From: an uncultured Gammaproteobacteria bacterium
Lineage (GTDB): Bacteria; Patescibacteriota; Patescibacteriia; Magasanikbacterales; JBBTXJ01
Length of the DNA: 64,000 nt
NCBI GenBank assembly: GCA_964636345.1
Contig: CAZWRL010000001.1
Span: forward strand, 235-64,234
Direction of reading: 5' to 3'
Shown: positions 9,887-25,711 of the stretch, in pieces
Numbering within the stretch: position 1 is the stretch's first letter
How the letters are laid out: every line of letters starts with the position of its first letter
Translations under genes and position numbers: made by a program
The notes under the pieces: generated by a model
Databases searched by the model: none
What the model was told of the DNA's origin: nothing
Seen by the model: only the letters and a program-made list of their open reading frames with translations

Positions 9887-12670
9887 ATGACCGCACAGTT
9901 TCGTTATACAAAAGGGTTGCTTTTGGTTTTACTGCTATTTTTTAGTTTTTCAATAGTTGCTCCTGTTTACGCGGAAGCGCCGGCGGCAGGCGCTCCGGCA
10001 GCGAGTTCCAAAGATGAAGATGATGGTATCATTGCAGGCGCAGTGAAAGGTATTTTTGATTCTTTACTTGGGTTCATTGCCACCCTTTTCCTCATGGTTG
10101 CCAGTTTGCTCGCGGGTATTCTTGGCATGTTTATCTCCCTCCTTTTGAGCGTTGCCTCGTATAATAATTTTATTAACGCGGGCGGGGTTATTATCGGCTG
10201 GACGTTGACGCGCGACATTGTGAACATGTTTTTTGTCGCGGTATTTTTGGTTATCGCGCTGGGAACGATTATCGGCAAAAAGGAGTATCACATCAAAAAC
10301 GCGCTCCCCAAATTCGCGCTTGCCGCTATTCTGGTCAATTTTAGCCGGCTCATTCTTGGACTTATTATTGACGCGTCGCATGTCATCATGATGACGTTTG
10401 TCAATGCCATTCAACAGGTGGGGGGCGGTAATTTTTTGGCAGCGTTTAATATCCAAGCAAATTTTGAGCTGGCCAAAGACGCAGGGCTTTCCGGGTTTGA
10501 TCAACTACTCACGGCCATTATGAGTGTGCTTTTGGTTTTTATTGCCACGGTTATTGTGGGAATGTTCGCGCTCATGCTCGTTATGCGAATGGTTGGACTC
10601 TGGATATTAATTGCCGTGTCGCCCCTTGCGTTTTTTTTGCGGAGCTTGGATTCAAAAAGTTTTCAAAAATACTACGGTGATTGGGAGGGAAAGTTTAAGG
10701 TAAATGTTTTGATGGGACCGGTGATTGCATTTTTTTTGTGGCTTGCGCTTGCCATGTCGCAAGGCGGTAAATTATATTCCAGCGAGGTAAAGGGTGCATC
10801 GGACGCGGAAGCGCAAAAGAATTTGGAAGGAAAACCCGGACTGGTTGGTTCTACCATTTCTACCATTGAGGGTTTGAGTTCGTTTATTATTTCAGCGGCG
10901 TTGTTTTTGTTTGCGTATCAACAAGCGCAACAATTTGCCAAAGAGAGCGGTATACCGGGAATGGATAAGCTGGTGGGTAAGGCGGGTGATTTTATGAAGA
11001 AGGGCGCCAAGTATGTGAGCGGATATAAGGCGGCGCGCGCGGTTGGGTCATACACGGTAGGCGCCGGAGCGCGCTGGGCGTTGCGTGCGGGAGCCGGATT
11101 GGCGCGCGGTGCAGTGGGGCTTGGTAAAGTGGTTGCTGGCGGATATGCTGCTGGTGGTATGCGTGGCGCGGCGGGTGCACTTGGCGGTGCGGCGGCTGGC
11201 GCAGCACGCGCACTGCCTGGCGCAGCCATGGGAGCGGTTCGTGCGGCGGCCGTAGTTGGCGGATTGAAGGGCGCGGGTATCGCGCTTGCCGCTGGTGCCG
11301 CTGGTCTTGGCGCGACTGCAGCTGCGGGAATCAAGGGTAAACTTGGTGAAGTTGCCTCAAAGGATATAGAGAAGTTTGGCAAGGTTGACTCCAATTTGTC
11401 TAATGATCAGTTGTCTGATGTGATGCGAAGAGGCGGCGCGCGCGGTCAGGCGGCAGGATTGTCACTTGCAAAGCGCGGGTATCAATTTACAGAGACAGAG
11501 GCCAAGACAATGCAGGCATTGCTTGCCGGCAATGGGCCATCTGAAAAACAATTTAAGGATAGCTTAAAGAAAAGTGCGCCGCATCTTGCGTATGATCTTT
11601 CCGATCCGAAAAAACGCAAAGAAATGTTGCGTGATCCGGAAGTGCAAACGAATAATCTGCCACGCGAAGCGTTTGAAGGGCCACATGGCGAAGCGCTCAT
11701 GAGTGATATGCTTGAAGATTTGGGTTCAAAGGGTCTTGGTAAACAAATTAATAGTTTGCGTAACCCTGACGCGCGCAAGGCGGCGCTCAATGTGATGCGT
11801 ACCTCCACCATCCCCACCGCCTTTCGTGAGCGTGGTACGCATGTGGCGCGGCTTGGCGCAACAACCGACACTACCGCAGGGACTGTTCACGGTGAACTCC
11901 ACATGAAACGCGCCGCGCTTGCGGCGCTTCCCGCGGGTAATACGATGACGAATCGGCAGAAAAAGATTGATCTTGAGCGTGATATACGCAAGCTTGAGGG
12001 TGAAAAAAGCGCGCTTGAAACACGGGTGAGTGCCGGTGTTGATCTTGCCAAGTTGCACGCTCAAGAGACAGGTCGGCCAGATCAGACGGTTGCTTCTTTG
12101 TCATCTGCCGAGCAAGCATCGCTTCTACCCGATCTTGTTCAAGAAGTAGGAGTTGGGGGCTTGAAACCTGAAGCGCTCCAGAATCCTGAAGTGTTGGCGG
12201 CAATTGAGAAAACTGCTGGTGATCGGTTTGGCGATGCCATGAAAAAGTTGGATCCGGAAAAGATGCGGGTGGTTGTAACGGCGGTTGCCAATATTAATAG
12301 CGTCTCTGCCCCACCAGAGCAGGTGCGTGTTAAGGTGCGGGTATCCGGTGATTTTACCGGCGTTGAGGCAAATCCAGAGCGCGCTGTCATTATACAACAA
12401 GCAGTTTCAGTTATGAATTCTCGCGAATTGGCGCAGGTTAAATTAGATACACTGGGCGGCACGAGAGATGATTTTTATAGTGCGTTGACGCAGAATCCTG
12501 GGGCGGTTAGGGGATTGAATCGGGCGGAGGGGATGAGTCAAGCAAAACTTGATGAAATTGAAGCCGAGGTCAAAAAACGTGCCGTCACCGATCCCGCAAA
12601 ATTTGGTGCGCTTGCGAAGGAAATAGGCAGTTGGAATAAAGGAAAGGGTGGCGGAGGGCGAGGACCCTAA
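9887..12670 (+). CDS. VirB6/TrbL-like polytopic membrane protein with a long Gly/Ala-rich and coiled-coil C-terminal extension (T4SS-like channel component)
   Basis: Signal peptide, at least 6 TM helices in the first ~330 aa, a low-complexity GA-rich region, and a C-terminal charged/coiled-coil segment. Position ahead of VirB3/VirB4-like genes. Confidence 0.5.
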   Translation: MTAQFRYTKGLLLVLLLFFSFSIVAPVYAEAPAAGAPAASSKDEDDGIIAGAVKGIFDSLLGFIATLFLMVASLLAGILGMFISLLLSVASYNNFINAGGVIIGWTLTRDIVNMFFVAVFLVIALGTIIGKKEYHIKNALPKFALAAILVNFSRLILGLIIDASHVIMMTFVNAIQQVGGGNFLAAFNIQANFELAKDAGLSGFDQLLTAIMSVLLVFIATVIVGMFALMLVMRMVGLWILIAVSPLAFFLRSLDSKSFQKYYGDWEGKFKVNVLMGPVIAFFLWLALAMSQGGKLYSSEVKGASDAEAQKNLEGKPGLVGSTISTIEGLSSFIISAALFLFAYQQAQQFAKESGIPGMDKLVGKAGDFMKKGAKYVSGYKAARAVGSYTVGAGARWALRAGAGLARGAVGLGKVVAGGYAAGGMRGAAGALGGAAAGAARALPGAAMGAVRAAAVVGGLKGAGIALAAGAAGLGATAAAGIKGKLGEVASKDIEKFGKVDSNLSNDQLSDVMRRGGARGQAAGLSLAKRGYQFTETEAKTMQALLAGNGPSEKQFKDSLKKSAPHLAYDLSDPKKRKEMLRDPEVQTNNLPREAFEGPHGEALMSDMLEDLGSKGLGKQINSLRNPDARKAALNVMRTSTIPTAFRERGTHVARLGATTDTTAGTVHGELHMKRAALAALPAGNTMTNRQKKIDLERDIRKLEGEKSALETRVSAGVDLAKLHAQETGRPDQTVASLSSAEQASLLPDLVQEVGVGGLKPEALQNPEVLAAIEKTAGDRFGDAMKKLDPEKMRVVVTAVANINSVSAPPEQVRVKVRVSGDFTGVEANPERAVIIQQAVSVMNSRELAQVKLDTLGGTRDDFYSALTQNPGAVRGLNRAEGMSQAKLDEIEAEVKKRAVTDPAKFGALAKEIGSWNKGKGGGGRGP

Positions 12671-12679
12671 ATTTACGGT

Positions 12680-13984
12680 ATGATTCATTTTACTCCACAA
12701 AAGGTTGAAGAGCTTACCGCAAAAGCGTTGCCAAAGGCGCGTGAGCAGGCGGCTGTTTTGGTTCCCGTTGTTACGGCAACGGTTGGTGGTTTGATTGATA
12801 ATTCCACGCGGGCAAAGACACTCGGGAAGATGTTTGGGTGGGCTGCGCTTGGGGGCGCGAATTATCTGCGTGACATGCCGCAAGAAATTATTGAAACATT
12901 CGGCACGGCGGAAGATGTGGCGTATACCTTGTGTGACCGCGTGCTTGAGGCGCATGGTGATTTATTTAAACCGTTTGTTGAACATATTGATGCCATTCGC
13001 CGGCCATGGCAGGCGAAAGTGAAACAGGATGTGATGAAGGAGCGTGCTGCGGATGGGCCGGGAGCAGTGATTGCGCCGACGGTGGTATTGCCAGTGATTG
13101 CGCCGCTTGAAGAGGCGCCGGTGAATGGCGGTTTGAAACATCAAGATATTGCTGATCGGGTGAATGCGCGTTTGGCAATGGTGGAACAGTTGGCTGGCGT
13201 GACATTTACTAATCCCGACATGGCGGAACGCTTTCGCCATGCGTTGCGCTGCGCGCTTGGTGGCGTGAAAAAGTTGGATGAGGTGGCGCGACAACTTGCG
13301 CTGGTGCCGGATCGCGGCGGACTCGGCATGGGACAGGAGGAAGTGCAGGAGATTGTTGGTTTGCTTGAACGGCTTCATGCCAAAGAAGCGGAACAAGCAG
13401 AGCGGGCGCAGATGAAAAAACCAGAAACGCCGAAGAGTATGTTGCCGATGGTGGTTGGCGAGATTGCTTCATCATCTTTACCCTTCGACTCCGCTTCGCT
13501 TCGCTCAGGGACAAATATTACTCGCAATGACACGTCTCAAAAACTTGATGAATTGATTCAACAAAGCGCGGCGAATGATTCAGTTGATCTTTCGGCACTT
13601 GCTACCGGCGGCGCGGATCTTGCGGCGTCGCGCAAAATGCATGATGTGATTGCCCGGCCGCTTACCATGGGGCCGCTTGAAGAATTGCGCACGCTTGATG
13701 TGACGGATTTCAGACGTTTGGCAACCAAAGCCGGCGCGGCAGTGGATAAAATTAAACAAAAATTGGAATTATTGCGTGACGATGGCGTTGACCGGTACGC
13801 GGCGGGCATTAAGGCGTGGCGCGGAAGCCCGCTCTACTTTCTGTATGTGGATATGGTGCAGGAAGGATTGGTGGAAGGGCGCGCGCTGGAAGATATCGCC
13901 GCGTCAGATACCAATGATCCGGAGCGTTTAAGTGGCGAAGAACTGAAAAGTATAGTAGAATTAAATAAGTCATTACGATTTTAA
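12680..13984 (+). CDS. Hypothetical soluble protein (434 aa) inside the T4SS-like cluster
   Basis: ORF packed tightly between the VirB6-like and PrgI-like genes; no recognisable motifs. Confidence 0.45.
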   Translation: MIHFTPQKVEELTAKALPKAREQAAVLVPVVTATVGGLIDNSTRAKTLGKMFGWAALGGANYLRDMPQEIIETFGTAEDVAYTLCDRVLEAHGDLFKPFVEHIDAIRRPWQAKVKQDVMKERAADGPGAVIAPTVVLPVIAPLEEAPVNGGLKHQDIADRVNARLAMVEQLAGVTFTNPDMAERFRHALRCALGGVKKLDEVARQLALVPDRGGLGMGQEEVQEIVGLLERLHAKEAEQAERAQMKKPETPKSMLPMVVGEIASSSLPFDSASLRSGTNITRNDTSQKLDELIQQSAANDSVDLSALATGGADLAASRKMHDVIARPLTMGPLEELRTLDVTDFRRLATKAGAAVDKIKQKLELLRDDGVDRYAAGIKAWRGSPLYFLYVDMVQEGLVEGRALEDIAASDTNDPERLSGEELKSIVELNKSLRF

Positions 13985-13986
13985 GT

Positions 13987-14427
13987 GTGCCACAACAGTT
14001 CGCGGTGCCACAATTTATTGACGCGGAAGATAAAATTATGGGGCCGGTAACGGTGCGCCAGTTTTTAATTCTGATTGTAGCCGCGCTCGGGGCGTTTATC
14101 ATCTGGAAGCTCGCGACGTTTTGGCTCGCGATTGTGCTGGCGGTGTTATGGTTTATTCTCGCGGTTGTGGTCGCATTTGTAAAAATTAACGGGCAGAATT
14201 TTCATGTTTTTTTGTTAAGTTTTGTGCGTACGCTGGTGAAGCCGAATCTCCGCGTGTGGAAGAAAGATTACACAAAAGAGGAATTAACCGCTTTGATGCA
14301 GATGGCGCCCAAGGTAGTGGTTAAAGAAGCGGCGGTTCAGAAAGAACGGGTGGCGCGCGGACGTTTGAGTGAATTATCGCTCACGGTTAATTCCGGCGGC
14401 GCGTTTGATCCAAAGGATTACGAATAG
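13987..14427 (+). CDS. PrgI/VirB3-like small two-TM membrane protein
   Basis: 146 aa with two adjacent TM helices, immediately upstream of VirB4 (conserved VirB3-VirB4 synteny); GTG start. Confidence 0.45.
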   Translation: MPQQFAVPQFIDAEDKIMGPVTVRQFLILIVAALGAFIIWKLATFWLAIVLAVLWFILAVVVAFVKINGQNFHVFLLSFVRTLVKPNLRVWKKDYTKEELTALMQMAPKVVVKEAAVQKERVARGRLSELSLTVNSGGAFDPKDYE

Positions 14428-14428
14428 T

Positions 14429-15118
14429 ATGGCAAAACCCCCCAAAACTTCCATTCCTTCTACCCAGCGATACCTGGACATTGCGGCGATTCGCGATGGG
14501 GTGATTGTTATGCGTGATGGGACGCTTCGCGCGGTGTTGATGGTTTCAAGTATCAACTTTGCGTTGAAATCCGAGCAAGAACAGGAGGCGCTGGTGGGAA
14601 GTTATGTGAGTTTTTTGAATACGCTGGAATATCCGATTCAAATTGTGGTGCAATCGCGCAAGATGAATATTGACGCGTATCTACAGTTGCTCAAGGAGCA
14701 AGAGCAAAAGCAAACCAATGAATTATTGCGCGCGCAAATTCAGGATTATCGCGCGTTTGTGGTTGATTTGGTGGAACTGGGGGAAATTATGCAGAAACGA
14801 TTTTTTGTGGTGCTTGCGTATGATCCGGCGGCGAACATTAAAAAGGGGTTCCTGACGCGGCTGAAAGATGCGATGGCGCCCGCGAAAGTTATTAAAATGA
14901 AGGAAAAACAATTTAATGAACGGCGGCAGGATTTGCAGATGCGGGTTGACGGGGTGAGCAGCAGTTTGCAGGGGATGAGTTTAAAAGTGGTGCAATTGGA
15001 TACGCAAGGGCTCATTGAATTATTTTATAACATTTATAATCCGGTCACCGCGCCACAAGAAGAGCTCACTGATATCGGCAAGTTGCAGGTTGAGGAAGAA
15101 CCGGCGTTTGCTCCGTAA
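14429..15118 (+). CDS. VirB4/TrbE/CagE-family ATPase, N-terminal fragment, ended by an in-frame TAA
   Basis: N-terminal VirB4 signature (IRDGVIVMRDGTLRAVLMVSSINFALKSEQEQEALVGSYVSFLNTLEYPIQIVVQ). Same frame as 15122..17197, separated only by TAA plus one codon. Confidence 0.6.
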   Translation: MAKPPKTSIPSTQRYLDIAAIRDGVIVMRDGTLRAVLMVSSINFALKSEQEQEALVGSYVSFLNTLEYPIQIVVQSRKMNIDAYLQLLKEQEQKQTNELLRAQIQDYRAFVVDLVELGEIMQKRFFVVLAYDPAANIKKGFLTRLKDAMAPAKVIKMKEKQFNERRQDLQMRVDGVSSSLQGMSLKVVQLDTQGLIELFYNIYNPVTAPQEELTDIGKLQVEEEPAFAP

Positions 15119-15121
15119 TCT

Positions 15122-17197
15122 ATGGCATTTAAACCCGTACAATCTGGCGCGCTTGGAGCTACCGAACAGGTAAAGAATGTTGGGGCGGCATTAAAGACCA
15201 AAGCGGAGCATGAGGAGGCGACGCAGCAGGCGGCTGTTGACAAATCGCTTTCCGTGTTGCAGGAAGAGCGTGTGTACCGTGAGGGCGCGGTTTCGGTGCG
15301 CGATATTATCGCGCCGGCGGCGTTTAAGGTTGATCCCGGCATGGTGCATCTTGGGGATACGGTGCTCCGCACGATGTATGTGGTGACCTATCCGCGCTTC
15401 ATTAGTATTGGCTGGTTCACGCCGATTATCAACATGAATGTCACGGTTGACATTTCCATGTATTTTTATCCGATGAAATCCGAGATTGTGCTGAAGCAAC
15501 TGAAGAAAAAGGTGGGAACGCTAGAGGCAGAAATAAGTGCGGCGCGTGAGAAGGGGATGCCGCGTGATCCCGCGGCCGAGACCGCCATTGGTGACGTTGA
15601 ACGTTTGCGTGATTCATTAACGCAGGGCACCGAACATTTTTTCCAATTTGCGTTGTATGTCACCGTGTACGGCAAGGATCTGGAAACGTTAAATAAGGTC
15701 TCTGAACAGGTTGAATCCGTGTTTGCGAGTTCTTTGATTTACACGCGTCGTGTATTATATCAGGCGGAGCAAGGATTTAATTCAACCCTGCCGCTTGCCA
15801 ATGATGAATTGCAGGTCGCGTTTAACATGAATTCATCGCCGATTGCGTCGTCGTTTCCGTTCATGTCAAGCGATCTGACGTCTGACAGCGGCATTTTGTA
15901 TGGGATCAATCGGCACAATAACAGTTTGATTATTTTTGACCGTTTCAGTTTGCCGAACGCGAACGGGATTGTGTTTGCCACGTCCGGCGCGGGTAAAAGT
16001 TACGCGGTGAAATTGGAAATTTTGCGGACACTCATGATGGGCGTTGACGTTATTGTGATTGACCCTGAAATGGAGTACAAAAATTTGTCTGACGCGGTGG
16101 GCGGTTCGTATGTTAATTTGTCGCTTGCGTCAGAGAGCAAACTTAATCCGTTTGATTTGCCGCGTCCCACCACCGGCGATGCTACCACTGAAGATATTAT
16201 TCGGAGCGCGGTGATTACCACCAAAGGAATCTTGCGCGTGATGCTGGGGCAATTTTCCGTTCAGGAGGATTCATTGCTTGACCGCGCGCTATTGGAAACC
16301 TACGCCAAAAAAGATATTACGGCTGATTCTGATTTAACTAAATTGGGCCCCACCGACATGCCCATTTTGACTGACTTGCAGGATATTTTGGAGGGCATGA
16401 CCGATTCAAAAGATCTGGTTGAAAAATTGAAGAAGTATACGGAAGGCACGTTTTCCGGTTTGTTAAATTCCTACACTAATATCACGATGAATAATTTACT
16501 CGTGGTATTCAGTGTGCGTGATTTGGAAGATGAATTGCGGCCGGTGGGGATTTTCACGATTGTAAATTATATTTGGAATGTGGTGCGCTCCGAGCGAAAG
16601 AAGCGCGTGCTGGTGGTTGATGAGGCGTGGTGGCTCATGCAACATGAGGATTCCGCGCGGTTTATTTTCACGCTCGCGAAACGTTGTCGTAAATATTTTT
16701 TGGGCATTACCACCATCACGCAGGATGTGGCCGACTTTTTGGGGTCGCAGTACGGACGCGCGATTGTGACGAACTCGCAGATGCAATTGTTGTTGAAGCA
16801 ATCAACGGCCTCCGTAGATAAATTGGTTGAGGTTTTTATGTTAACGCAGGGCGAGAAGTTTTTACTGTTGGAGTCAGGAGTGGGCGAGGGTATTTTCTTT
16901 GCCGGACCGCGTCACGCCGCGATTAAAATTATTGCTTCCTATAATGAGGATAAATTGGTAACGACGAATCCGGAGCAGTTGCTCGCGATTGATAAATCCA
17001 AAAAAGCGTTTAAGGAGATGATACAAACAAAAGAGACGACGCCAGCGGCGAGTGCTCCCGCACCAGAACCGGCGCCTAAGGAAGAGCCGAAAGAAGAGCC
17101 GAAAGAAATGGCAGTGGAAACACCGGCTGAAGTAGTGGCCGTGGCACCGGAAGCCGTGGTTGCGCCTGCACCGGCGCCGGAAGCGCCTAAAACATAA
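15122..17197 (+). CDS. VirB4/TrbE/CagE-family ATPase, main body with Walker A and B
   Basis: Walker A FATSGAGKSY, Walker B RVLVVDEAWWLM, and a Pro/Glu-rich C-terminal tail. Confidence 0.75.
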   Translation: MAFKPVQSGALGATEQVKNVGAALKTKAEHEEATQQAAVDKSLSVLQEERVYREGAVSVRDIIAPAAFKVDPGMVHLGDTVLRTMYVVTYPRFISIGWFTPIINMNVTVDISMYFYPMKSEIVLKQLKKKVGTLEAEISAAREKGMPRDPAAETAIGDVERLRDSLTQGTEHFFQFALYVTVYGKDLETLNKVSEQVESVFASSLIYTRRVLYQAEQGFNSTLPLANDELQVAFNMNSSPIASSFPFMSSDLTSDSGILYGINRHNNSLIIFDRFSLPNANGIVFATSGAGKSYAVKLEILRTLMMGVDVIVIDPEMEYKNLSDAVGGSYVNLSLASESKLNPFDLPRPTTGDATTEDIIRSAVITTKGILRVMLGQFSVQEDSLLDRALLETYAKKDITADSDLTKLGPTDMPILTDLQDILEGMTDSKDLVEKLKKYTEGTFSGLLNSYTNITMNNLLVVFSVRDLEDELRPVGIFTIVNYIWNVVRSERKKRVLVVDEAWWLMQHEDSARFIFTLAKRCRKYFLGITTITQDVADFLGSQYGRAIVTNSQMQLLLKQSTASVDKLVEVFMLTQGEKFLLLESGVGEGIFFAGPRHAAIKIIASYNEDKLVTTNPEQLLAIDKSKKAFKEMIQTKETTPAASAPAPEPAPKEEPKEEPKEMAVETPAEVVAVAPEAVVAPAPAPEAPKT

Positions 17198-17202
17198 CGC
17201 CT

Positions 17203-17769
17203 ATGCTTTTTACTGAACGACGCCCACTCATGATTGGACTTATCGTGTTATCCGCGGTTGTGGTTGTGGTGGTTGTGATTTTTATTGTTCGTTTTGCGCG
17301 GAGTGGCGACTCGGGCGGAGAAGCAGTCAAGCCGACACCTGCTAAAATAGCTGGTACATCATCGGATGGCGCGGTGGTGCCACCAAAAGATTTTGATAAA
17401 CAAACGGTTGAAAGTTTGGCTCGTCTTTTTGTTGAACGGATTGGCAGTTATTCAAATCAGAGTAATTTTCAAAATTTGAATGATGTGGCAAGTTTGCTGA
17501 CGCCACGAGCGCGTACGTGGGCCGATGGTTTGAAGAAAACGCAAGATACCAGCGCGGGGTATCGCGGGATAACGACAAAAGCGTTGACCGCGGAGACCAC
17601 TGACTGGAAACCACGTGAGAGCGCGCGCGTGCGTATTGCAACGCAACGACAGGAGGAGCGTGATGGTGCCTTGCCACAGTTGCAGTATCAGGATGCTGAA
17701 GTGCGCTTGGTTTTTCAGGGTGACTCGTGGCTGGTTGATGAAATGGTATGGAAGGATGTTCAGCCATGA
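17203..17769 (+). CDS. Bitopic membrane protein (one N-terminal TM plus a ~150-aa extracytoplasmic domain); possible VirB8-like T4SS component
   Basis: Single TM (IGLIVLSAVVVVVVVIFIV). The VirB8 call rests on position only. Confidence 0.35.
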   Translation: MLFTERRPLMIGLIVLSAVVVVVVVIFIVRFARSGDSGGEAVKPTPAKIAGTSSDGAVVPPKDFDKQTVESLARLFVERIGSYSNQSNFQNLNDVASLLTPRARTWADGLKKTQDTSAGYRGITTKALTAETTDWKPRESARVRIATQRQEERDGALPQLQYQDAEVRLVFQGDSWLVDEMVWKDVQP

Positions 17770-18415
17770 GTGCGTGACACAATGGTTTTTTGATCGCTTG
17801 TTTCCGCTTTCTTGTTTTGGTTGTGAAAAGGAAGGGTGCTGGGTGTGTGGCGCGTGCGAAGACGCGCTTGTGTTTTTACCGCCGGTATGGCAGGGAGCTC
17901 CTATGCCACTCCGCGGAAGCACCGCTGTTTTTACCTATGACCAGCCGGTGGTGCGTTCCATGGTGATGGCGCTCAAATATCAGTATGCGGAATTGGTAGT
18001 TCCGGTGATGGGCGGTTTGATTGCTCGGTGGCTCTCGGACGGCGGCAGAGAAATGTTTCCCGCGAATGGCGTTATTGTTCCGGTGCCGCTCCACCCGCGA
18101 CGGTATGCCTTACGCGGATTTAATCAGGCGGAATTGATTGCCCAGGAGCTTGGCCGCCTTCTTGGTCAACCGGTCGTTTGTCTCCTGAAGCGCACACGCG
18201 CTACGCGCCATCAAACACTGCAAACGCGTCTTTTGAGATGGCAAAATGTTGATGGCGCTTTTGCGGTGGCTGATGATGCGGTGATTGATGGAAGGCCGGT
18301 TATTATTGTTGATGATGTGACCACAACCGGCGCAACGCTTGCCGCATGCGCACGGCCGCTTATGGCGGCAGGCGTTCAGAAAATATACAGCTTTGCCTTT
18401 GCGCGTGAGTTATGA
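17738..18415 (+). CDS. comFC: ComF/ComFC-family phosphoribosyltransferase-domain protein (DNA-uptake associated)
   Basis: N-terminal Cys4 zinc finger (CFGCEKEGCWVCGAC) and PRTase motif IIVDDVTTTGATL. Start chosen at the first ATG after the upstream gene. Confidence 0.7.
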   Translation: MKWYGRMFSHECVTQWFFDRLFPLSCFGCEKEGCWVCGACEDALVFLPPVWQGAPMPLRGSTAVFTYDQPVVRSMVMALKYQYAELVVPVMGGLIARWLSDGGREMFPANGVIVPVPLHPRRYALRGFNQAELIAQELGRLLGQPVVCLLKRTRATRHQTLQTRLLRWQNVDGAFAVADDAVIDGRPVIIVDDVTTTGATLAACARPLMAAGVQKIYSFAFAREL

Positions 18416-22857: not shown

Positions 22858-22947
22858 TGGCGGAGGAGGTGAGATTCGAACTCACGAGGGCTGTTAGACC
22901 CTACCTCGTTAGCAGTGAGGCGCACTAGACCACTATGCGACTCCTCC
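22858..22947 (-). tRNA. tRNA-Ser (anticodon GCU), long variable arm, encoded CCA
   Basis: Reverse complement folds as acceptor GGAGGAG/CTCCTCC, anticodon loop CUGCUAA, long extra arm and T-loop GTTCGAATC. Confidence 0.8.
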
Positions 22948-25620: not shown

Positions 25621-25711
25621 TGGCGGTGGGGGTGAGATTCGAACTCACGGTACCCTTTGGGGGTACGACAGTTTTCAAGACTGTTGCCATCAACCACTCG
25701 GCCACCCCACC
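25621..25711 (-). tRNA. tRNA-Ser (anticodon UGA), long variable arm, encoded CCA
   Basis: Reverse complement GGTGGGGTGGCCGAGTGG...anticodon loop CUUGAAA...GTTCGAATC...CCCCACC-G-CCA. Confidence 0.8.

Follow-up and report, generated by a model that had tools for sequence, protein, structure and literature searches.

When two consecutive open reading frames resemble the two ends of one familiar protein and are parted by a single in-frame stop codon, one has to ask whether a gene has been interrupted or whether two genes are present. Two ORFs in a stretch of DNA of 64,000 nucleotides (referred to here as the window) raise this question, because together they resemble the VirB4 ATPase of type IV secretion systems (T4SS). 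A sequence-only reading of the window had considered a recent nonsense mutation, a sequencing error, programmed read-through and a genuine two-piece VirB4. We consider it very likely (a probability of about 0.9) that these are two ordinary, separately translated genes, namely a TrsD-like gene (ORF1) and an ATPase gene (ORF2), in the monoderm-type T4SS cluster of a Candidatus Uhrbacteria-like Patescibacterium.

The Junction

All features described here are on the forward strand. A single frame runs from the ATG at 14429 to the TAA at 15116-15118, continues through the codon TCT (15119-15121) and then extends from the ATG at 15122 to the TAA at 17195-17197. ORF1 (14429-15118) encodes 229 aa and ORF2 (15122-17197) encodes 691 aa, with only the TAA and TCT between them; a ribosome that read through would translate 923 codons with one stop (…PAFAP*SMAFKP…). 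When the sequence was re-read, the coordinates in the sequence-only reading, the shared frame with a TAA plus one codon and the joint length of about 920 aa all proved to be exact.

That reading also considered a reassigned stop codon to be unlikely on the grounds that TAA ends several genes, and the larger count agrees with it: the 49 long ORFs in the window end in TAA (30), TGA (12) or TAG (7), so that TAA is the commonest stop. Reassignment can be ruled out, as all three stops terminate long ORFs in the window and also ORF1 in its relatives.

The gene immediately upstream (13987-14427) encodes a small membrane protein of 146 aa that belongs to the PrgI family (VirB3-like); the protein matches Pfam PrgI above the cut-off (E 3.7e-10) and has one strong hydrophobic segment. 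The stop of this gene is 1 nt ahead of the ORF1 start (TAG-T-ATG). The gaps between the genes of the cluster are all 1-9 nt, and the junction between ORF1 and ORF2 looks like every other junction in the operon. No Shine-Dalgarno (SD) or translational coupling signal was found ahead of the ATG at 15122, from which ORF2 presumably starts. However, this result says nothing about the ORF2 start because no gene in this genome shows an SD signal: the anti-SD duplex energy upstream of the 49 long ORFs is the same as at random positions (-3.55 vs. -3.46 kcal/mol). Orthologous junctions with long spacers also have no SD sequence.

The Split in Orthologous Loci

An ORF1 alignment was used to fetch 80 loci from distinct species-level genomes, all of them Patescibacteria by name or context (Uhrbacteria, Magasanikbacteria, Falkowbacteria, Komeilibacteria and Parcubacteria). 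Enough downstream DNA was present in 78 of these, and their junctions were measured with a script. All 78 have an ORF1 homologue of 218-247 aa (median 229), a stop codon and then a separate ATPase gene that begins with a conserved M-A/P-F/I. With the window included, the ORF1 stop is TAA in 45-46 cases, TAG in 22 and TGA in 11. Thus, the comparison of fused and split loci proposed in the sequence-only reading comes out entirely on the side of split genes, the outcome that was named there as refuting an interruption, and "interrupted by a single in-frame TAA", the label used there, is the wrong one for a normal gene boundary.

The frame of ORF2 relative to ORF1 varies among the 79 junctions (window included), being 0 in 19, +1 in 33 and +2 in 27; one of the frame 0 assignments (L070) was made by eye rather than by script. 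Of the 78 script-measured junctions, 47 have a spacer of 0-10 nt, 11 have one of 11-50 nt and 16 have one longer than 50 nt (at most 192 nt); in the other four the genes overlap. Stop-N-ATG is the form seen most often. In the two nearest relatives, whose ORF1 proteins are 77% and 75% identical to that of the window, the junctions are TAA-T-ATG and TAA-TT-ATG, i.e., spacers of 1 and 2 nt, as compared to TAA-TCT-ATG in the window. Insertions or deletions of 1-2 nt, which would be fatal to a single frame, are therefore tolerated in the spacer, and this indicates that ORF1 and ORF2 are translated separately. The two genes are in frame in this lineage because the spacer happens to be 3 nt. In-frame junctions are not enriched (24% vs. 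33% expected) and thus give no hint that read-through has been selected for; the shared frame is a coincidence that occurs no more often than by chance.

Contigs from three independent assemblies (JGI 3300009691, ENA ERZ27245644 and Logan SRR5747841) carry an identical 229-aa protein, identical junction DNA and the downstream gene of 691 aa, which excludes an assembly artefact for practical purposes. Therefore, one of the four explanations in the sequence-only reading, the genuine two-piece VirB4, was right, and the other three have to be given up. A recent nonsense mutation does not account for a stop at this boundary in all 78 other species and for the strong conservation of both halves; a sequencing error does not account for an identical junction in three assemblies; and programmed read-through does not fit the 60 of 79 junctions that are out of frame, with genes that overlap or are up to 192 nt apart.

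Searches for fused proteins gave the same picture. With ORF1 as the query, a 5.8-billion-protein collection yielded 4414 homologues (E <= 1e-3), of which the best 120 are all 202-237 aa. Among 1.84 billion cluster representatives, all of which were scanned, 2614 clusters matched, and the best 150 are 116-443 aa. The best 120 homologues of ORF2 are 601-739 aa, none of them near 920 aa; the closest among the matches listed is 97% identical and is from Candidatus Uhrbacteria RIFCSPLOWO2_02_FULL_51_9. Consequently, no fused homologue is present among the best 120 and 150 ORF1 matches or the best 120 ORF2 matches (390 in total).

ORF1, a TrsD-Like Module

ORF1 is a distant relative of the Bacillota TrsD/TraD subfamily (NCBIfam NF041427). 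Its profile score makes it homologous to this subfamily without being one of the curated members: it matches profile positions 22-200 of 201 with 30.4 bits (E 3.1e-7), which is under the curated cut-off of 200 bits. In other respects it resembles TrsD/TraD. It has 229 aa and no hydrophobic segment, it lies in the order PrgI, ORF1, ORF2, which is also the order in pSK41, and it has homology to the N-terminal portion of VirB4. The latter is seen in matches to the extreme N-termini of two full-length VirB4 families in NCBIfam, CD1110 (positions 10-97 of 752) and Mbov_0397 (128-243 of 894), and in a sub-threshold match to Pfam TraC_F_IV (19-181 of 375, E 7.7e-5). The precomputed annotation of the protein collection assigns PF26593 (TraC-like) to the identical protein and to all 120 homologues; our local Pfam scan (E <= 0.01) did not return this family.

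ORF1 was also compared to PDB chains, both alone and as a 103-sequence profile, and only chance matches were obtained. The kinship to VirB4 is therefore seen solely in the family profiles and in a comparison of folds. The structure model of ORF1 has a pLDDT of 88.2 and its best fold match is TrwK/VirB4, and so in this model ORF1 has an autonomous VirB4-like fold. Its assignment to the initial part of the N-terminal domain of VirB4 is based on profile coordinates, as the fold search gives no aligned ranges.

ORF2, the ATPase Body

ORF2 contains the second part of the N-terminal domain (residues about 56-250), a RecA-like ATPase domain (250-609) and a variable tail rich in Pro, Ala, Glu and Lys. 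Its Pfam matches are P-loop_TraG (E 1e-26), DUF87, AAA_10 and TraC_F_IV (positions 275-352), and residues 250-609 match the C-terminal domain of VirB4 in PDB 4AG5 (E 1.3e-44). The Walker A motif ATSGAGKSY (residues 286-294; 15977-16003) and the Walker B motif VLVVDEAW (496-503; 16607-16630) are both aligned to 4AG5, the former to its P-loop. Columns A286-S293, which include the GAGKS at 289-293, and the DE at 500-501 are invariant in 30 ORF2 homologues. With Walker motifs in a RecA-like domain and a score of 344.2 bits against the CD1110-family VirB4 profile (NF045971; curated cut-off 325), ORF2 belongs by sequence to the VirB4 family of T4SS ATPases.

This match covers profile positions 183-729 of 752, so that about the first 180 positions are missing, and the match to the Mbov_0397-family profile covers positions 292-887. 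As a result, the ORF2 polypeptide has an incomplete N-terminal domain, the first module of which is encoded by ORF1. An AlphaFold2 model of ORF2, made from a 30-sequence alignment of close relatives, had a pLDDT of 48.8 and was unusable for a structural comparison with TrwK.

The Same Break in Other Systems

ORF1 and then ORF2 fall on consecutive parts of the same profiles: 10-97 and 183-729 of CD1110, 128-243 and 292-887 of Mbov_0397, and 19-181 and 275-352 of TraC_F_IV. By these coordinates, the two proteins are complementary rather than redundant, with ORF1 supplying the module that ORF2 lacks.

The Staphylococcus aureus plasmids pSK41 and pGO1 (NF041427; MPF_FATA class) have the same three genes as the window, i.e., TrsC (135 aa), TrsD (227 aa) and TrsE, a DUF87 ATPase (672 aa), compared to 146, 229 and 691 aa in the window. 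The alignment of the ORF1 profile to pSK41 TrsD is nearly full-length (hhalign probability 84%, E 7e-6) and that of ORF2 to TrsE is full-length (E 2e-47), which puts the break at a homologous position. The window differs from pSK41 in that identity is only about 21-25% and ORF1, as noted above, scores far below the family cut-off. In addition, pSK41 is a conjugative plasmid, whereas the flanks of the window look chromosomal.

A tblastn search of plasmids with ORF1 found 23 records from Bacillota and Actinomycetota. On megaplasmids of Pontibacillus and Clostridium perfringens, as in the window, a PrgI-like gene accompanies genes for a TrsD-like protein (274 or 312 aa) and a VirB4-like ATPase (621 or 641 aa); between the latter two genes there is either an 11-nt overlap or a gap of 130 nt. 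In an Embleya (Actinomycetota) plasmid, PrgI and the TrsD-like module are fused in a 349-aa protein (hhalign probability 97.8%, E 7e-13), followed by an unrelated gene and then by a separate 643-aa ATPase, which aligns from its residue 3 to ORF2 from residue 65 (35% identity, E 2e-111). Plasmid pMM35_02 of Vescimonas fastidiosa encodes one 942-aa PrgI-VirB4 fusion in place of three separate genes; its residues 14-106, 123-255 and 332-931 are collinear with PrgI, ORF1 and ORF2 (E 0.005, 3e-16 and 3e-57, respectively). In full-length VirB4 proteins (TrwK of R388, PDB 7O42, and the CD1110 and Mbov_0397 families), unlike in the window, the modules are on one polypeptide.

In these alignments, wherever the break between TrsD and the ATPase is present, it is at a homologous position, and we take this gene boundary to be ancient and shared with conjugation systems of Bacillota and Actinomycetota. 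The arrangements in different monoderm lineages range from split (PrgI/TrsD/ATPase) to half-fused (PrgI-TrsD/ATPase) to fully fused (PrgI-TrsD-ATPase), and this series of related sequences supports the suggestion that the three modules form one physical unit.

Published Descriptions of TrsD

The arrangement of TrsD and VirB4 has already been described in the literature, and the pair in the window is normal and ordinary. Quinonero-Coronel et al. (2025, Microb Genom, PMC12102498) report that TrsD is remotely homologous to the N-terminal portion of VirB4 and that it is the most abundant T4SS component in Patescibacteria, with 2,272 homologues, of which 1,664 are associated with VirB4. The TrsD homologue of Ca. 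Southlakia epibionticum ML1 is listed there as essential. What that paper and a second one (PMC12857230) report for the Patescibacteria T4SS is an essential role in epibiotic growth, not conjugation. The window belongs to the same phylum and has the same order of genes (PrgI/VirB3, TrsD, VirB4) and a comF gene beside the cluster; relative to the pairs described in PMC12102498, nothing in it is substantively different, and it is one more instance. The literature assigns no function to TrsD, and the passages of that paper considered here do not mention that the VirB4 encoded downstream is missing the TrsD-like module. In the window, this absence in ORF2 follows from the complementary profile coordinates of the two proteins. 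Guglielmini et al. (2014, PMC4027160), which PMC12102498 cites for the homology between TrsD and VirB4, does not have the word TrsD in its main text. The "TraD" of the pELF plasmid (PMC13492992) is a VirD4-like protein and was set aside as irrelevant.

How the Two Proteins May Work Together

Our prediction is that ORF1 attaches in trans to the N-terminal part of ORF2 and so would rebuild a VirB4-like protomer with a completed N-terminal domain. The series of split and fused proteins described above supports this putative assembly; both the complex and its stoichiometry are predictions. In R388 VirB4, residues 15-400 form the N-terminal domain, and in the central subunits VirB3 is wrapped around this domain (PMC9259494). 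Only six of the twelve VirB4 subunits in R388, the central ones, bind VirB3, and they do so via the N-terminal domain. By analogy, ORF1 and PrgI together would hold the ATPase hexamer at the membrane platform.

A speculative and rather doubtful extension is that a free N-terminal module may be functionally meaningful instead of neutral, in that the ratio of TrsD to ATPase would be set independently. If the comparison to R388 holds, free TrsD could decide which ATPase subunits dock onto PrgI/VirB3, or it could regulate how a secretion system essential to epibiosis is assembled.

Alternative Explanations

One can also imagine that the TrsD-like protein, although derived from the VirB4 N-terminal module, is now an independent accessory component, e.g., a chaperone-like protein or an adaptor, with its own partners outside the ATPase protomer. 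We consider this improbable: ORF2 lacks exactly the module that ORF1 has, the fused proteins hold both in the same order, and the two genes are almost always neighbors (78 of 78 loci in our comparison and 1,664 of 2,272 in PMC12102498). Low-level read-through of the TAA in this particular lineage, which would produce some full-length fused VirB4 beside the two separate products, has in its favor that the frames coincide, that the spacer is one sense codon and that 19 of 79 orthologous junctions are in frame. However, read-through should preserve the in-frame relation among orthologs, and the frames are instead distributed 19/33/27, with junctions from overlaps to 192-nt spacers and no excess of in-frame cases over the 33% expected. 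In addition, the two genes are out of frame in the nearest relatives, TAA is the stop used most often in the window, and inspection of the junction revealed neither a read-through context nor a structure for it, all of which makes this explanation very unlikely.

We give almost no credence to a recent nonsense mutation, or an assembly or sequencing error, in a once-intact 920-aa VirB4. It would account for the appearance of the locus, a single in-frame stop between VirB4-like halves, and for nothing else. A pseudogene should have intact orthologs and relaxed conservation; neither the 78 other species nor the 390 listed homologues include a fusion, the boundary recurs in all of these species together with an ATG and the conserved M-A/P-F/I N-terminus of ORF2, and both pieces are highly conserved, with 45 invariant columns in the ORF1 alignment. 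The identical junction in the JGI, ENA and Logan assemblies argues against an error. Two separately translated genes thus continue to be the explanation that we favor.

Consequences for Annotation

A TrsD-VirB4 pair should not lead a genome scan or an annotation pipeline to report a VirB4 pseudogene that is frameshifted or interrupted. The shorter VirB4 proteins (about 620-700 aa) of Patescibacteria and of the pGO1/pSK41-type Gram-positive systems need to be interpreted jointly with the TrsD-like gene upstream. The series of split, half-fused and fused proteins also provides a concrete hypothesis for TrsD function, namely that it would be part of one unit with PrgI and the ATPase.

Other Genes of the Cluster

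Downstream of ORF2 is a gene (17203-17769) for a 188-aa protein with one N-terminal transmembrane segment; it is the last tightly packed gene of the cluster and is called in independent assemblies. A phosphoribosyltransferase/ComF-like gene is at about 17615-18415, and T4SS loci of the class ABY1 commonly include comF, according to PMC12102498. The chromosomal appearance of the flanks is due to a glpX-type FBPase, CofD, BipA and tRNAs. Upstream of the PrgI gene, a 434-aa protein (12680-13984) had no family match in Pfam and NCBIfam scans; its gene is called at the same position in independent assemblies. The first gene of the cluster (9887-12670) encodes a 927-aa polytopic membrane protein, with eight to nine hydrophobic segments within its initial 340 residues, which is a VirB6-like candidate by position only; Pfam and NCBIfam scans gave no match for it. 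The Pontibacillus plasmid locus has a large unannotated protein in the place equivalent to this gene.

Relation to the SCO6880 family

Between 13987 and 15800, a region that takes in PrgI, ORF1 and the N-terminal part of ORF2, three consecutive genes match the 477-position NCBIfam SCO6880-family profile in order, with PrgI, the VirB3-like small membrane protein, covering profile positions 12-78, the TrsD-like ORF1 covering positions 239-293 and residues 125-226 of the VirB4-type ATPase ORF2 covering positions 377-476. As judged from sequence, these ordered matches suggest an actinomycete protein in which PrgI and the entire VirB4 N-terminal domain would be fused. Such a fusion would break at a different place than the ORF1/ORF2 boundary in the window.

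The final ~70 residues of ORF2 form a low-complexity tail rich in Pro, Ala, Glu and Lys (16990-17194). This tail differs among near relatives, since the nearest homologue among the matches listed, a 648-aa protein with 97% identity, spans just 93% of ORF2.

Short tandem repeats occur inside the 80-190 nt trsD-virB4 spacers of four orthologous loci from other Patescibacteria species. The unit is cgcataa (four copies, from 6643) in L043 and accctaa (three copies, upstream of the ORF2 start) in L059, while L023 and L050 have cacgtaaca-like units after the ORF1 stop. In the window as a whole, a Shine-Dalgarno signal is absent; the anti-SD duplex energy is -3.55 kcal/mol upstream of 49 long ORFs, no different from the -3.46 kcal/mol at random positions.

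Other genes of the cluster and its surroundings

Two large genes of the type IV secretion cluster, encoding proteins of 927 and 434 aa (within 9887-13984), have no matches in Pfam or NCBIfam. The 927-aa product, which has 8-9 N-terminal transmembrane segments, is a VirB6-like candidate by its position alone.

Directly after the cluster is a ComF-like phosphoribosyltransferase gene (17615-18415), a location that agrees with reports of comF beside type IV secretion genes in class ABY1 Patescibacteria. As listed, the gene starts at a GTG and overlaps the 188-aa ORF before it, so the real start is probably further downstream at ATG 17663.

Two minus-strand tRNA-Ser genes, with anticodons GCT (22858-22947) and TGA (25621-25711), and flanking housekeeping genes (glpX-type FBPase, CofD, BipA/TypA and LemA) indicate that the cluster resides on a chromosome rather than a plasmid.
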